A DNA stretch of 64,000 bases from Escherichia phage vB_EcoM_JB75. Numbering within the stretch: position 1 is the first letter of the stretch; every line of letters begins with the position of its first letter. The translations under genes and the position numbers were made by a program. The stretch lies in the sequence record MH355584.1. One strand, written 5' to 3'. This document shows positions 32,118-45,354 of this stretch, piece by piece. The notes under the pieces are model-generated. The model saw only the letters and a list, made by a program, of their open reading frames with translations. It made no database searches and had not been told where the DNA came from.

Positions 32118-32190
32118 TGGGAATTAGCCAAGTTGGTAAGGCATAGCACTTTGACTGCTAGATGCAAAGGTTCGAGTCCTTTATTCCCAG
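32118..32190 (+). tRNA. tRNA-Gln (anticodon UUG)
   Basis: Cloverleaf by eye: acceptor TGGGAAT/ATTCCCA, anticodon arm TAGCA-CTTTGAC-TGCTA, T-loop GGTTCGAGTCC. Confidence 0.8.
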
Positions 32191-32191
32191 C

Positions 32192-32278
32192 GCGAGAATG
32201 GTCAAATTGGTAAAGGCACAGCACTTAAAATGCTGCGGAATGATTTCCTTGTGGGTTCGAGTCCCACTTCTCGCACCA
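32192..32278 (+). tRNA. tRNA-Leu (anticodon UAA)
   Basis: Acceptor GCGAGAA/TTCTCGC, anticodon loop CTTAAAA, long variable arm, encoded CCA. Confidence 0.8.
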
Positions 32279-32283
32279 AATTT

Positions 32284-32357
<74 letters not shown>

Positions 32358-32367
32358 ATTTAATTTA

Positions 32368-32441
32368 CTCCGTGTAGCTCAGTTTGGTAGAGCGTCTGCT
32401 TTGGGAGCAGAATGTCGTAGGTTCAAATCCTGCCACGGAGA
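32368..32441 (+). tRNA. tRNA-Pro (anticodon UGG)
   Basis: Acceptor CTCCGTG/CACGGAG, anticodon arm TCTGC-TTTGGGA-GCAGA, T-loop GGTTCAAATCC. Confidence 0.8.
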
Positions 32442-32443
32442 CT

Positions 32444-32533
32444 GGAGGCGTGGCAGAGTGGTTTAATGCACCGGTCTTGAAAACCGGCAGTCGCTCCGGC
32501 GACTCATAGGTTCAAATCCTATCGCCTCCGCCA
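32444..32533 (+). tRNA. tRNA-Ser (anticodon UGA)
   Basis: Acceptor GGAGGCG/CGCCTCC, anticodon loop CTTGAAA, long variable arm, encoded CCA. Confidence 0.8.
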
Positions 32534-32538
32534 GTTTT

Positions 32539-32614
32539 GCTGATTTAGCTCAGTAGGTAGAGCACCTCACTTGTAATGAGGACGTCGGCGGTTCGATTCC
32601 GTCAATCAGCACCA
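32539..32614 (+). tRNA. tRNA-Thr (anticodon UGU)
   Basis: Acceptor GCTGATT/AATCAGC, anticodon arm CCTCA-CTTGTAA-TGAGG, encoded CCA. Confidence 0.8.
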
Positions 32615-32615
32615 A

Positions 32616-32690
32616 GGCCCTGTAGCTGGAAGGTTCAAGCAAGCGACTCATAATCGCCAGATGGTGGTTCAATTCCACCCAGGGCCACCA
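32616..32690 (+). tRNA. tRNA-Ile/Met (anticodon CAU; T4-type tRNA-Ile reads AUA after modification)
   Basis: Acceptor GGCCCTG/CAGGGCC, anticodon loop CTCATAA, T-loop GGTTCAATTCC, encoded CCA. Confidence 0.7.
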
Positions 32691-32703
32691 AATTAAGAAT
32701 TAA

Positions 32704-32790
32704 GGGGAGTTATCCCGTAGAGGTAGCGGTGTGGACTGTAAATCCATTGTCATTGCGACTCGGGTGGTTCGACTCCATCACTCCCCACCA
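32704..32790 (+). tRNA. tRNA-Tyr-like (anticodon GUA), long-variable-arm type
   Basis: Acceptor GGGGAGT/ACTCCCC, anticodon arm GTGGA-CTGTAAA-TCCAT, variable arm, T-arm GGTGG-TTCGACT-CCATC, CCA; D-arm is weak so it could be a variant or pseudo-tRNA. Confidence 0.55.
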
Positions 32791-32794
32791 ATTT

Positions 32795-32869
32795 GGATGT
32801 GTAGCTCAGTGGTAGAGCAGTTGACTGTTAATCAATTGGTCCATGGTTCGAATCCATGCATGTCCGCCA
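32795..32869 (+). tRNA. tRNA-Asn (anticodon GUU)
   Basis: Acceptor GGATGTG/CATGTCC (two GU pairs), D-arm GCTC-AGTGGT-AGAGC, anticodon loop CTGTTAA, T-arm CATGG-TTCGAAT-CCATG, CCA. Confidence 0.7.
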
Positions 32870-32873
32870 AATA

Positions 32874-32949
32874 CGAGGCATAGCTCAGAAGGAAGAGCAA
32901 GGACCTTCTAAGTCCTGGGTCGTAGGTTCGATCCCTACTGCCTCGACCA
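32874..32949 (+). tRNA. tRNA-Arg (anticodon UCU)
   Basis: Acceptor CGAGGCA/TGCCTCG, anticodon arm AGGAC-CTTCTAA-GTCCT, T-arm GTAGG-TTCGATC-CCTAC, CCA. Confidence 0.8.
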
Positions 32950-40439: not shown

Positions 40440-40802
40440 ATGAAAGCATATCAAATTCTTGAAGGCACACACAAAGGCACTATTTATTTTGAAGATGGTA
40501 TTCAAGCACGAATTATCGTTTCTAAAACCTTTAAAGAGGACTCTTTTGTAGACCCAGAAATTTTCTATGGTTTGCATGCCCGTGAAATTGAAATTGAGCA
40601 ACAGCCTACAGTTAAAATTGAAGGTGGTCAACACCTGAACGTTAACGTTCTGCGTCGTGAAACTCTGGAAGATGCAGTTAAGCATCCGGAAAAATATCCG
40701 CAGCTGACCATCCGTGTATCCGGTTATGCAGTTCGCTTTAACTCTCTGACTCCGGAACAGCAGCGCGACGTTATCGCTCGTACCTTTACCGAGAGTTTGT
40801 AA
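40440..40802 (+). CDS. autonomous glycyl radical cofactor (GrcA/YfiD-like; T4 Y06I-type)
   Basis: 120 aa; C-terminal ~60 residues match E. coli YfiD/GrcA as I recall it, including the radical glycine in RVSGYAVRF. Confidence 0.85.
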
Positions 40803-41023
40803 TGGCAAAGATAATTATTGAAGGTTCTGAAGATGTGCTAAATGCTTTCGCCGAGTGGTTTAGTAATTCAGGCGAACAGCAATTTAATGAAGCCTGGAAT
40901 ATGGGTGATATTGATGGAATTTATCCTACGACAGAAATTTCTGTTCAGGGATATGGCATTCATGAACCTATTCGTTTAGTTGAATACGATTTATGCACTG
41001 GTGAGGAAGTCAAATATGATTGA
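40802..41023 (+). CDS. hypothetical protein
   Basis: 73 aa ORF, start overlaps upstream stop. Confidence 0.5.
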   Translation: MAKIIIEGSEDVLNAFAEWFSNSGEQQFNEAWNMGDIDGIYPTTEISVQGYGIHEPIRLVEYDLCTGEEVKYD

Positions 41024-41282
41024 AGATATTAAGGGTTATAAACCACATACCGACGAAAAAATCGGTAAAGTAAATGCTATTAAAGACGCTGAAGTTCGTT
41101 TAGGACTTATCTTTGATGCTTTATATGATGAATTCTGGGAAGCGTGGGACGATTGCGAAGACTTTGAACTCGCGAAGAATTATGCTGAAAGCCTCGATCA
41201 GTTAGCTATTGCTAAAACGAAACTCAAAGAAGCCAGTATGTGGGCTTGTCGTGCTGTGTTCCAACCAGAGGAAAAATACTAA
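41016..41282 (+). CDS. hypothetical protein
   Basis: ATG at 41016 overlaps upstream stop (ATGA); 88 aa. Confidence 0.5.
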
Positions 41283-41560
41283 TGGCTCAATTAAGCGCAG
41301 GGTTTGGTTATGAGTATTATACTGCCCCTCGTCGTGTGTCTGCTGCTCCTAAGAAAATTCAAAGTCTTGATGACTTCCAGGAAGTAGTCCGTAACGCTTT
41401 CCAGGACTATGCACGGTATCTTAAAGAAGATTCACAGGACTGTCTCGAAGAAGATGAAATTGCTTACTATACGCAGCGTCTTGAACAGCTCAAAAATCTA
41501 CATGAGGTTCGTGCAGAAGTTTCAAAGTCTATGAATAAATTGATTAGATTTAAAGAATAA
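41282..41560 (+). CDS. hypothetical protein
   Basis: TAATG overlap start at 41282; 92 aa. Confidence 0.5.
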
Positions 41561-41561
41561 C

Positions 41562-41594
41562 TGTTTACTTTTCCTCTTGACTGTGGTATAATTT
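41562..41594 (+). promoter_or_regulatory. T4-type early promoter (upstream of regB)
   Basis: CTGTTTACTTTT ... TGTGGTATAATTT. Confidence 0.55.
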
Positions 41595-41619
41595 TTCTAT
41601 CAGTTAAGAGGAGAACAAC

Positions 41620-42081
41620 ATGACTATCAATACAGAAGTTTTTATCCGTCGAAATAAGCTTCGTCGTCACTTTGAGTCGGAGTTTCGTCAAATTAACAAT
41701 GAGATTCGTGAGGCATCAAAAGCAGCAGGAGTCTCATCGTTTCATCTAAAATATTCTCAACATCTTCTTGATCGTGCAATTCAACGGGAGATTGATGAGA
41801 CATATGTTTTTGAATTATTCCATAAAATAAAAGACCATGTTTTAGAAGTTAATGAATTCCTGAGTATGCCTCCGCGTCCTGACATTGACGAGGATTTTAT
41901 TGATGGGGTTGAATATCGTCCTGGACGTTTAGAAATCACAGATGGAAATCTTTGGCTTGGATTTACGGTTTGTAAGCCTAATGAGAAGTTCAAAAACCCG
42001 TCACTTCAATGCAGGATGGCAATTATCAACAGTCGTCGTTTACCAGGAAAGGCTTCTAAAGCAGTAATTAAAACTCAATGA
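41620..42081 (+). CDS. regB: site-specific endoribonuclease RegB
   Basis: 153 aa; length and position match T4 regB; own promoter and SD. Confidence 0.8.
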   Translation: MTINTEVFIRRNKLRRHFESEFRQINNEIREASKAAGVSSFHLKYSQHLLDRAIQREIDETYVFELFHKIKDHVLEVNEFLSMPPRPDIDEDFIDGVEYRPGRLEITDGNLWLGFTVCKPNEKFKNPSLQCRMAIINSRRLPGKASKAVIKTQ

Positions 42082-42088
42082 GGTAAGC

Positions 42089-42634
42089 ATGAGAAAAGCA
42101 CTACTCGCTGGTCTATTGGCCATTTCAATGATGGCACATAGCTCCGAGCATACTTTCAGTAATGTCCAACTCGATAACATGCGTTACGCGTATCAATTCG
42201 GGGAACAATTTTCTAAGGATGGAAAATATAAAACACACAAAAATATCCACAAGAGCGGATTAGGTCATATAATGGCTGCTATTTTATGGCAAGAAAGCTC
42301 TGGCGGAGTTAATTTAAAATCTAAACCAAAGCATCACGCTTATGGAATGTTCCAAAATTATTTGCCTACTATGCGAGCAAGAGTTAAGGAACTTGGTTAT
42401 AATATGACCGATGCTGAAATAAAAAGAATGTTGAATAAACGATCCAATTCAGCTTCCTGGGCGTACATTGAACTTTCTTATTGGTTAAATATACATAAGG
42501 GCGATATAAGAAAAGCAATATCATCTTATAATTCGGGATGGAATGTTAAAGCAGGTTCTAAATATGCTTCTGAAGTCCTAGAAAAGGCTAATTACCTTAA
42601 AAATAATAAACTTTTGGAAATAGTAAATGACTAA
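42089..42634 (+). CDS. secreted lytic-transglycosylase-like protein (T4 vs.1 position)
   Basis: N-terminal signal peptide MRKALLAGLLAISMMAHS; SLT-type motifs LWQESSGG and YNSGWN. Confidence 0.6.
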   Translation: MRKALLAGLLAISMMAHSSEHTFSNVQLDNMRYAYQFGEQFSKDGKYKTHKNIHKSGLGHIMAAILWQESSGGVNLKSKPKHHAYGMFQNYLPTMRARVKELGYNMTDAEIKRMLNKRSNSASWAYIELSYWLNIHKGDIRKAISSYNSGWNVKAGSKYASEVLEKANYLKNNKLLEIVND

Positions 42635-42974
42635 AATTTTGGTTTTATGTATAGGATTAATTTCATTTTCTGCTTCTGCGTCAGCAGATACATCATATAC
42701 TGAAATTAGAGAATATGTAAATCGCACTGCGGCAGATTATTGTGGGAAAAATAAAGCATGCCAAGCTGAATTTGCGCAGAAATTAATATATGCATATAAA
42801 GACGGAGAAAGAGATAAATCAAGCAGATACAAAAACGATACATTATTAAAACGATATGCTAAAAAGTGGAATACCTTAGAATGTTCAGTTGCGGAGGAGA
42901 AAGATAAAGCCGCTTGTCATTCAATGGTTGACCGTTTGGTAGATTCTTATAATCGAGGATTGAGTACTAGATGA
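42627..42974 (+). CDS. vs: valyl-tRNA synthetase modifier-like protein (T4 vs position), signal peptide
   Basis: 115 aa as T4 Vs; N-terminal signal sequence and four Cys. Confidence 0.55.
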   Translation: MTKILVLCIGLISFSASASADTSYTEIREYVNRTAADYCGKNKACQAEFAQKLIYAYKDGERDKSSRYKNDTLLKRYAKKWNTLECSVAEEKDKAACHSMVDRLVDSYNRGLSTR

Positions 42975-43438
42975 TTGTAAAATATATCAAGGGCGATATT
43001 GTCGCCCTTTTCGCTGAAGGTAAAAATATTGCGCATGGATGCAATTGTTTTCATACTATGGGTTCAGGCGTAGCGGGTCAATTAACCAAAGCTTTCCCTA
43101 AAATTTTGGAAGCTGATAAATTACAGACTGAATGGGGTGATGTAACTAAACTCGGTTCTTACTCAGTCTATGAAAAATACTTTAGGACTCATAAAGCGTA
43201 TTGCTTCAACCTTTATACTCAATTTCAACCAGGGCCAAATTTTGAGTATTCCGCTTTAATGAATTGTATGTTAGAATTAAATGAGTTTGGTGAAAATAAA
43301 CTGATTAAACCTACAATCTATATGCCTAGGATTGGTGCAGGCATAGGTAAAGGGAACTGGGATATTATTGAGGGGATTTTAGATACATATTCCTCTAAAT
43401 TAGAAATTGTGATTGTTGATTGGGAACCGTTATTATGA
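42971..43438 (+). CDS. macro-domain protein
   Basis: 155 aa; macro-domain glycine-rich motifs HGCNCFHTMGSGVAGQ and IGAGIGKGNW. Confidence 0.6.
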   Translation: MIVKYIKGDIVALFAEGKNIAHGCNCFHTMGSGVAGQLTKAFPKILEADKLQTEWGDVTKLGSYSVYEKYFRTHKAYCFNLYTQFQPGPNFEYSALMNCMLELNEFGENKLIKPTIYMPRIGAGIGKGNWDIIEGILDTYSSKLEIVIVDWEPLL

Positions 43439-43647
43439 ATATACATTATCCACATCCATATGACCCAAAGAATAAGGCAGTAATTATTCGTCAATGGGAA
43501 CGCATTTGCCGTACTAAATGTCCAATTAATAGTCCGCATGATGTAGATAAAGACTACATTGGAACATTCGTTGAATATACCTTTATTGATAAGAAAGGTC
43601 GTAAACAGCATGTAGAAGAATACTGCTTAAAGGTTACATGGTTATGA
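43435..43647 (+). CDS. hypothetical protein
   Basis: Track ORF from 43420; ATG at 43435 overlaps upstream stop; 70 aa. Confidence 0.45.
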   Translation: MNIHYPHPYDPKNKAVIIRQWERICRTKCPINSPHDVDKDYIGTFVEYTFIDKKGRKQHVEEYCLKVTWL

Positions 43648-43850
43648 GCCAAACTAGTATTCTTAAAAATGCCCATTGTGAAAGGTGTAAATGGCCAGTT
43701 GTTTTTGCTTTATGCAACGATGAAATGGCTTGTGATTTCGATTATTGGTGCTATTGTTCTAATAAAGGATGCATCAATCATAAAGGTGAAGGATTTTATT
43801 CGGGATTTTATCCTTATCCAGATTTCGTTAAAGAAGGTAAACCGAAATGA
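43638..43850 (+). CDS. Cys-rich small protein (possible zinc-binding)
   Basis: 70 aa with CxxC...C...CxC...C pattern. Confidence 0.45.
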   Translation: MVMSQTSILKNAHCERCKWPVVFALCNDEMACDFDYWCYCSNKGCINHKGEGFYSGFYPYPDFVKEGKPK

Positions 43851-44020
43851 ATAGTTTTGAGTTACAGTATGAAGTGTTACGTGAGCTTGATAATTTAATT
43901 GAACTCGCTGTCAATAAAGGTTTTGCCATTGGAATCGGTCAAAAAGATACTGGTCATTTAACTATGGAAATATTTAAGCAAAAGCGAATTATTTTAAAAC
44001 TCCTGGAAATTAATATATGA
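43847..44020 (+). CDS. small hypothetical protein (not in ORF track, 57 aa)
   Basis: ATGA-coupled to the genes on both sides. Confidence 0.4.
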   Translation: MNSFELQYEVLRELDNLIELAVNKGFAIGIGQKDTGHLTMEIFKQKRIILKLLEINI

Positions 44021-44202
44021 GTCTGAGTAAAGAACAAAAAGATAAATTGTTTGAGCTTATCCATGAACTTCTAGATGAGCATACAGAAGCAAACACCTTT
44101 TATGATGAATACGGCCCGTTATCTCCCGAACAGCAGGAAGAATTTGCTGATCGGTTTGATAAGAAAGAAAATGAATTAATAGCTTATGTGAATACGCTTT
44201 AA
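44017..44202 (+). CDS. hypothetical acidic protein
   Basis: 61 aa, coupled ORF just before tk. Confidence 0.45.
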   Translation: MSLSKEQKDKLFELIHELLDEHTEANTFYDEYGPLSPEQQEEFADRFDKKENELIAYVNTL

Positions 44203-44211
44203 GAAGGTGAT

Positions 44212-44793
44212 ATGGCGAGTTTAATTTTTACTTATGCAGCAATGAATGCTGGAAAATCTGCTTCTCTTTTGACTGCCGCACATAATTATAAAGAACGTGG
44301 AATGAGTGTATTAGTTCTTAAACCCGCTATTGATACTCGCGATTCTGTCTGTGAAGTTGTTTCTCGCATTGGAATTAAACAGGAAGCGAATATTATTACA
44401 GATGATATGGATATTTTCGAGTTCTATAAATGGGCTGAAGCACAAAAAGATATTCATTGCGTATTTGTAGATGAAGCCCAGTTTTTAAAAACTGAACAGG
44501 TGCATCAATTAAGTCGAATTGTTGATACATATAATGTTCCTGTTATGGCTTATGGATTAAGGACTGATTTCGCTGGAAAATTGTTTGAAGGTTCTAAAGA
44601 ACTTTTAGCGATTGCAGATAAACTTATTGAACTAAAGGCGGTTTGTCATTGCGGTAAAAAAGCGATTATGACAGCTCGATTAACGGAAGATGGAACACCA
44701 GTTAAAGAAGGTAATCAAATCTGTATTGGTGATGAAATTTATGTTTCTTTGTGTAGAAAACATTGGAATGAATTAACTAAAAAGCTCGGTTAG
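44212..44793 (+). CDS. tk: thymidine kinase
   Basis: 193 aa; P-loop AAMNAGKSASLL, Walker B VFVDEAQF, zinc-ribbon cysteines; T4 tk length. Confidence 0.95.
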   Translation: MASLIFTYAAMNAGKSASLLTAAHNYKERGMSVLVLKPAIDTRDSVCEVVSRIGIKQEANIITDDMDIFEFYKWAEAQKDIHCVFVDEAQFLKTEQVHQLSRIVDTYNVPVMAYGLRTDFAGKLFEGSKELLAIADKLIELKAVCHCGKKAIMTARLTEDGTPVKEGNQICIGDEIYVSLCRKHWNELTKKLG

Positions 44794-44835
44794 TGCAAAA
44801 GTTATAAATAGGTTTATCTAACTAAAGGGGTATAT

Positions 44836-45048
44836 ATGCTACAATTAACTGAAAAGCAACTTCGCAATCTTACTGTTCTTCAATTAGATGAAATTCGTAG
44901 GGAAGTTGGAAATATCATTTCAGCTTTGCGTCGAGAAGTATCACTCAACCAATCTCCGGCAGACTATACTAGATTGCGAAATTTTGAAAAATACCTTGAT
45001 AAAGTTAAGGCCGTGCATCGGCATAAAGTAAATACAGGACAAAAATGA
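44836..45048 (+). CDS. hypothetical protein
   Basis: 70 aa ORF with SD AAGGGG. Confidence 0.5.
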
Positions 45049-45060
45049 TAGGAGGCCTTT

Positions 45061-45354
45061 ATGGCCTTAAAAGCAACGGCACTATTTGCCATGCTAGGAT
45101 TAGCGTTTGCTTTATCTCCACCAATTGAAGCGAATGTCGATCCTCATTTTGATAAATTTATGGAATCTGGTATTAGACACGTTTATATGCTTTTTGAAAA
45201 TAAAAGCGTAGAATCATCTGAACAGTTCTATAGTTTTATGCGAACGACTTATAAAAATGACCCGTGCTCTTCCGATTTTGAATGTATAGAGCGAGGCGCG
45301 GAGATGGCACAATCATACGCTAGAATTATGAACATTAAATTGGAGACTGAATGA
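45061..45354 (+). CDS. rI: lysis inhibition regulator RI
   Basis: 97 aa; N-terminal signal-anchor MALKATALFAMLGLAFALSPPIEA; recalled T4 RI sequence nearly identical. Confidence 0.8.
   Translation: MALKATALFAMLGLAFALSPPIEANVDPHFDKFMESGIRHVYMLFENKSVESSEQFYSFMRTTYKNDPCSSDFECIERGAEMAQSYARIMNIKLETE

Follow-up and report, generated by a model that had tools for sequence, protein, structure and literature searches.

Phages carry stand-alone macrodomain proteins that act against DarT2, and the closest described example comes from T4. In a preprint dated 20 November 2025, a T4 transposon library was screened by HIDEN-SEQ on E. coli expressing DarTG2, and tk.4 was the sole T4 gene needed on that host (bioRxiv 10.1101/2025.11.20.689424). 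The gene is dispensable on E. coli K-12 and required specifically in the presence of DarTG2; its clean knockout made T4 sensitive to DarTG2 (the sensitive control was T5), and it was named adfM, for anti-DarT factor Macrodomain (bioRxiv 10.1101/2025.11.20.689424). With regard to chemistry, the authors say only that removal of ADP-ribose from DNA by the enzyme "seems likely" (bioRxiv 10.1101/2025.11.20.689424). A second phage protein called AdfM, PhiKZ gp104, removed ADP-ribose from a DarT2-modified oligonucleotide in vitro (Cell Rep 2026, PMC13309987). The N23A substitution lowered this activity, and gp104 counteracted the toxicity of DarT2 (PMC13309987). We searched T5 for a macrodomain of either AdfM type and found none, a consistency check that agrees with the DarTG2 sensitivity of T5 in HIDEN-SEQ.

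T4 also encodes AdfN (gene 30.3, NADAR fold), which acts on the guanine-specific DarT1. AdfN and Tk.4 follow the same logic, in which a stand-alone phage ADP-ribosyl glycohydrolase undoes a DNA modification made by DarT, hydrolysis being presumed in the case of Tk.4. However, AdfN has an unrelated fold, works on guanine-ADPr against DarTG1, and is encoded elsewhere in the genome than tk.4. AdfM for DarT2 and AdfN for DarT1 are dedicated erasers of host DNA ADP-ribosylation in a T4-like phage, and such erasers matter for predicting which phages overcome DarTG-bearing pathogens.

Here, we analyzed a tk.4 gene in a 64,000-nucleotide stretch of DNA (the window) from Escherichia phage vB_EcoM_JB75 (MH355584.1). 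The gene and a putative ribosome-binding site are as follows.

42971..43438, + strand: tk.4 (adfM) coding sequence, ATG start and TGA stop, 155 amino acids, from the program-made list of open reading frames
42955..42959, + strand: Shine-Dalgarno-like GAGGA, 11 nt 5' of the tk.4 ATG, read from the sequence

The window protein and T4 Tk.4 (T4p110, NP_049723) share 100% amino acid identity, and the two genes differ at six nucleotides, each a synonymous third-codon change. Amino acid identity, synteny, and the synonymous nature of these changes make the window protein an orthologue of AdfM in the sense of T4 Tk.4. The ATG is backed by homologues that align from residue 1-3, by the GAGGA, and by overlaps on both sides: it overlaps the vs stop codon (ATGA), and the tk.4 stop overlaps the tk.3 start in the same way (ATGA). 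Two glycine-rich motifs picked out in an earlier note on this DNA are present, GSGVAGQ at residues 31-37 (nucleotides 43061-43081) and IGAGIGKGNW at residues 121-130 (nucleotides 43331-43360). That note had proposed a macro-domain protein that reverses DarT-type ADP-ribosylation or modulates the phage's own ADP-ribosyltransferases. The first of these roles matches the genetics on the identical T4 protein, both the transposon screen and the clean knockout (bioRxiv 10.1101/2025.11.20.689424). The DarT hypothesis is therefore supported and already known: the anti-DarTG2 function of Tk.4 has been published, and the finding is correct but not new. Since the function was published for an identical protein, the locus adds no new system. 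What remains of interest is the replacement of a lysine by a glutamine in the active site and the large bacterial subfamily to which the protein belongs.

Homologues of the window protein are encoded in 2750 phage records, and the protein matches PHROG 335 ("phosphatase") with an E value of 1.3e-65. The T4 record text on NP_049723 reads "contains A1pp phosphatase motif", and the "phosphatase" label for Tk.4 in RefSeq and PHROG is an annotation transfer. It is one of several product names in RefSeq NC_054914 (L001) and NC_000866 (L087) that look over-transferred. Others are [quoted passage not shown], given to the 60-aa mobD.4, and "Tk.2", given to the product of tk.3.

Macro fold, binding loops, and active site

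Tk.4 matches the Pfam Macro family (PF01661) with 27.7 bits, where the gathering score is 22 (E 2.9e-6); residues 22-132 align to positions 2-113 of the 118 in the profile. This score, together with the PHROG 335 match, indicates that the macro motifs in Tk.4 did not arise by chance. The sole NCBIfam match is antitoxin_DarG (NF048014). It scores 30.3 bits, below the cut-off of 250, and takes in positions 2-146 of a 338-position profile, its macro half, so that Tk.4 falls well outside DarG as a whole protein. Among solved structures, those of BT1257, Poa1p, SCO6735, the DarG macrodomains, and TARG1 are closest in sequence. AlphaFold2 run on an alignment of 43 homologues gave a pLDDT of 95.6 and a pTM of 0.90, replacing a single-sequence run that was unusable (pLDDT 38.6), and the model has the three-layer alpha/beta/alpha macro fold. 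Foldseek ranked TARG1, Poa1p, BT1257, and DarG at the top, with TM-scores of 0.7-0.8; the best match was human TARG1/OARD1 (4J5R; E 8e-10, TM 0.73-0.80). By structure and by sequence, Tk.4 is nearer to the TARG1/DarG/Poa1p (ALC1-like) clade than to MacroD, PARG, or viral nsp3. The profile matches, the model, and the Foldseek ranks settle fold and clade. The macro-domain call, which the note had left open to being overturned by a contrary fold prediction, is thus right both by sequence (Pfam) and by fold (AlphaFold2 and Foldseek).

Three segments of the gene encode the motifs compared below.

43034..43081, + strand: loop 1, H22-G-C-N25-C ... M30-G-S-G33-V-A35-G-Q37, the predicted distal-ribose/diphosphate-binding loop
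43208..43222, + strand: beta5 motif N80-L-Y-T83-Q84, with Q84 where DarG (K80) and TARG1 (K84) have their catalytic lysine
43325..43360, + strand: loop 2, P119-R-I-G-A-G-I-G-K-G-N-W130, the predicted diphosphate-binding glycine loop

Tk.4 is predicted to bind ADP-ribose through these two glycine-rich loops, both of which are conserved in its homologues along with the aspartate of a KGD motif. H22, G23, N25, C26, G33, and A35 of loop 1 are invariant or nearly so in two sets of 119 and 80 homologues; loop 2 has four invariant residues, P119, I121, G122, and G124, and two that are almost invariant, G128 and W130. The residue of PhiKZ AdfM aligned with N25 is N23, and HGCNC aligns with HSCNC of yeast Poa1p (IHSCNC), which gives both proteins an H-x-C-N-C loop 1. 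Poa1p H23, S30, and F152 appear in PDB entry titles, and 6LFS is the structure of the H23A mutant. Loop 2 aligns to PRIGCGLDRLQW of TARG1 and PPLGVGNGGLDW of DarG.

DarG is inactivated by mutation of Lys80, and catalysis by TARG1 relies on Lys84 together with an acidic residue 125 (review PMC8120803). That residue is Glu125 in the review (PMC8120803) and Asp in the TARG1 chain that we aligned. An hmmsearch alignment places Tk.4 Q84 opposite TARG1 K84. Likewise, hhalign of the Tk.4 family profile against four DarG-type macrodomains (probability 98.9%) pairs N80-L-Y-T83-Q84 with DarG N76-F-P-T79-K80. Because the two methods give the same register, we conclude that Gln84 replaces the catalytic lysine and that Gly126 replaces Asp125 of TARG1, leaving Tk.4 with neither member of the TARG1 dyad and without the DarG F-P-T-K motif. 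A seven-sequence MAFFT alignment was one residue off register at beta5, and the mutually agreeing hmmsearch and hhalign alignments were used instead. Gln84 is present in 119 of 119 protein-database homologues. It is also present in 81 of 81 sequences made up of the Tk.4 reference and the best 80 of at least 515 bacterial loci, which were chosen by patterns from the Tk.4 family itself; H22, N25, C26, D49, N80, and Y82 are invariant in the same set. The replacement of the lysine is not raised in either AdfM report (bioRxiv 10.1101/2025.11.20.689424; PMC13309987). Loss of the conserved catalytic residues is what the note had said would count against its hydrolase, and here its expectation held in part: the ADP-ribose-binding loops and the asparagine equivalent to PhiKZ N23 are kept, and the lysine of DarG and TARG1 is gone.

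How do the named systems compare? TARG1 and Tk.4 have in common the KGD start, loop 1, and the PRIG-G loop, and differ at the dyad. The DarG macrodomains (T. aquaticus 5M31/5M3E, M. tuberculosis 5M3I) are about 20% identical to Tk.4 and have K80 where Tk.4 has Q84. Poa1p (6LFQ), a eukaryotic ADP-ribose-1''-phosphate phosphatase, and Bacteroides BT1257 (2FG1/2AFC) share 23-29% identity with Tk.4; Poa1p carries a long insertion and has a serine where Tk.4 has Q84, and BT1257 shares the N...Q motif. PhiKZ gp104 is like Tk.4 in being a stand-alone phage macrodomain directed against DarT2, but it has a DarG-type lysine (FPTKD) where Tk.4 reads LYTQF. BLASTP of Tk.4 against gp104 returned one 23-residue local match (E 0.005). 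This local match alone and the lysine in place of glutamine indicate that the two AdfM proteins are not orthologues, and Tk.4 is not an AdfM in the PhiKZ sense. The name was thus given independently to two non-orthologous macrodomains, one with Lys (PhiKZ gp104) and one with Gln (T4 Tk.4).

The missing lysine raises the possibility that Tk.4 protects against DarTG2 without hydrolyzing thymidine-ADP-ribose, either by binding ADP-ribose or ADP-ribosylated DNA, as a shield or as a route to repair, or by interfering with DarT2 or its NAD+ supply. DarG is inactive once its lysine is lost (review PMC8120803), the equivalent residue is invariably Gln in the Tk.4 family, and the support for the role of Tk.4 is genetic (bioRxiv 10.1101/2025.11.20.689424). 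However, other clade members that lack the lysine are catalytically active: Poa1p acts as a phosphatase, and SCO6735 hydrolyzes Glu-ADPr without the catalytic duo (review), giving two precedents for lysine-independent catalysis. Moreover, the strict invariance of H22, N25, D49, N80, Y82, T83, and Q84 looks like that of an active site rather than of a mere binding pocket, and toxin binding in DarG belongs to a C-terminal domain that is missing in Tk.4 (155 aa against a 338-position profile). We therefore regard protection without hydrolysis as unlikely, and hydrolase chemistry in Tk.4 as plausible.

A stand-alone subfamily in bacteria

In a pattern scan that took a single genome for each bacterial species, at least 600 stretches matched. 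At least 515 loci in these species-representative genomes encode a relative of Tk.4, many of them on megabase chromosomes. In the best 80 of these loci, taken for neighborhood analysis, the Tk.4-type gene is a stand-alone open reading frame of about 140-160 aa. Two homologues labelled as bacterial MAGs are actually on T4-like phage contigs. Immediate neighbors of Tk.4-type genes are lineage-specific housekeeping genes. With P. aeruginosa DarT2 as the one tblastn query, no DarT2 was found within 5 kb of the 80 loci, and DarT is absent from the 25 commonest Pfam families among 141 immediate neighbors. These tblastn and Pfam results speak against the Tk.4-type macrodomain as a bacterial DarT antitoxin.

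As judged from sequence, Tk.4 is not a DarG orthologue: it has glutamine in place of the lysine, and its stand-alone bacterial relatives are never beside DarT in the 5 kb searched around the 80 loci, just as Tk.4 itself is not encoded next to darT. Because these bacterial genes stand alone with no DarT nearby, Tk.4 is better called a recruited stand-alone macrodomain than an orphan DarG.

At three loci, a NADAR gene lies directly upstream on the same strand and overlaps the Tk.4-type gene by about 20 nt.

L022:4463-5459: NADAR-macro locus, Ruegeria
L059:4481-5456: NADAR-macro locus, Ruegeria
L070:4520-5450: NADAR-macro locus, Bacteroidales MAG

The Ruegeria NADAR proteins are 48-52% identical to E. 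coli YbiA. The pair looks like a two-gene ADP-ribose-processing cassette that joins the folds of T4 AdfN and AdfM. Some loci have NAMPT-like upstream open reading frames of about 490 aa (L037, L042, L050, and L055) or Nudix/NrtR-like ones of about 236 aa (L037, L044, L050, and L070), both judged by eye, and these hint that some members of the subfamily are linked to NAD salvage.

Such neighbors would suit an enzyme whose primary substrate is a small ADP-ribose derivative, such as ADP-ribose-1''-phosphate, O-acetyl-ADP-ribose, or an NAD-derived metabolite, as for Poa1p, with the DarTG2 phenotype as a secondary or side activity. The associations are few, however (3-4 of 80 loci), and tk.4 is needed with DarTG2 but not on K-12 (bioRxiv 10.1101/2025.11.20.689424). 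This specific need indicates that the DNA modification is the relevant target during infection, and we consider a small-molecule primary substrate improbable.

Thymidine-ADP-ribose as the likely target

Taken together with the fold, the published genetics make it likely that this AdfM orthologue binds ADP-ribose and shields replicating phage DNA from DarTG2, most probably by cleaving thymidine-ADP-ribose. The gene would be transcribed with its neighbors regB, vs.1, vs, and tk, probably early. Loops 1 and 2 of the protein would bind ADP-ribose, and Tk.4 would remove the ADP-ribose that DarT2 puts on thymidines of single-stranded phage DNA, allowing phage replication to go on. We infer hydrolysis of thymidine-ADP-ribose, a glycohydrolase step, for Tk.4 itself. 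Since Gln84 is invariant in the subfamily, this step would need a lysine-independent active site, perhaps formed by the invariant H22, D49, N80, and Q84.

Could the target instead be the phage's own handiwork? T4-like phages encode three ADP-ribosyltransferases (review), and a phage-encoded eraser that reverses or tunes the ADP-ribosylation (or RNAylation) of host proteins by Alt, ModA, and ModB would be a tidy partner for them. Alt and Mod modify arginine (review), however, and removal of arginine-linked ADPr is tabulated under DraG-like enzymes, while the substrates listed for TARG1/DarG-group macrodomains are protein-, OAADPr-, or thymidine-linked (review PMC8120803). Moreover, the screen gave no tk.4 phenotype without DarTG2 (bioRxiv 10.1101/2025.11.20.689424), and homologues abound in bacteria as well as in many non-T4 phages. 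The second role suggested in the note, modulation of Alt, ModA, and ModB, has accordingly found no support, and we consider it highly improbable.

A wider reading, which we hold tentatively, is that Tk.4 belongs to a distinct large subfamily that perhaps cleaves thymidine-ADPr independently of a lysine, that it was recruited from a stand-alone cellular enzyme, and that the T4 and PhiKZ AdfM proteins are convergent. The subfamily is defined by the signature H-G-C-N-C ... D49 ... N-x-Y-T-Q ... P-x-I-G-x-G-x-x-G-x-W and extends over the 2750 phage records and at least 515 bacterial loci. Because it lacks the lysine that is considered essential in DarG, hydrolysis of thymidine-ADPr by Tk.4, if true, would reveal a second catalytic solution in the macrodomain fold. 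It would also suggest what hundreds of bacterial homologues without annotation are likely to do.

The regB-tk region and other features of the window

The order of genes is regB, vs.1, vs, tk.4, tk.3, small open reading frames, and tk, as in annotated relatives and in T4.

41564..41592, + strand: promoter-like TTTACT-17-TG-TATAAT upstream of regB (consensus scan 10/12 plus extended -10)
42089-42634, + strand: vs.1, encoding a protein that resembles SLT-type lytic transglycosylases and has a signal-like sequence at its N terminus
42989-43009, + strand: inverted repeat in tk.4 codons 7-13, AAGGGCGA-TATTG-TCGCCCTT
43435-44202, + strand: four small overlapping open reading frames from tk.4 to tk (open reading frame list, Pfam)
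32118-32949, + strand: 10 closely packed tRNA genes (Gln, Leu, Gly, Pro, Ser, Thr, Met(CAT), Tyr, Asn, Arg)

The promoter-like sequence is a candidate early promoter for a regB-vs.1-vs-tk.4-...-tk unit, and a pattern scan of 40500-45200 found no terminator-like sites on the + strand. The inverted repeat, a perfect 8-bp, GC-rich stem with a 5-nt loop, lies 19 nt 3' of the tk.4 start; its 81-nt context is no more stable than shuffled sequences (z = -1.0). RIL-seq data in a preprint pair the tk.4 mRNA of T2 with ArcZ, an sRNA of the host. A homologue of vs.1 (L004:3740-4309, L007, and L030) is found near a Tk.4-type macrodomain in Flagellimonas marina and on two contigs of distant T4-like phages.

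The tk.4 macrodomain gene is the only one in the 64-kb window, where we found no DarT or DarT2 homologue and no NADAR gene. The 2.8 kb around tk.4 shows 99.4% identity to Escherichia phage vB_EcoM_ASO78A and is matched over 80% or more of its length by 444 phage records. The window phage is a Tequatrovirus other than T4; over 24 kb, no single record is more than 97.7% identical to it. Between tk.4 and tk it has four small open reading frames where T4 has three (tk.3, tk.2, and tk.1). They encode DUF7202/Tk.3, a 70-aa Cys-rich "Phage_zn_bind" protein, a 57-aa protein with no Pfam match, and a DUF7438/Tk.2-like protein, and the set is a small mosaic difference from T4.

T4 has eight tRNA genes, and the window phage seems to have those for Tyr and Asn beyond the T4 set. 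The tRNA with the CAT anticodon may be a lysidine-modified Ile tRNA.
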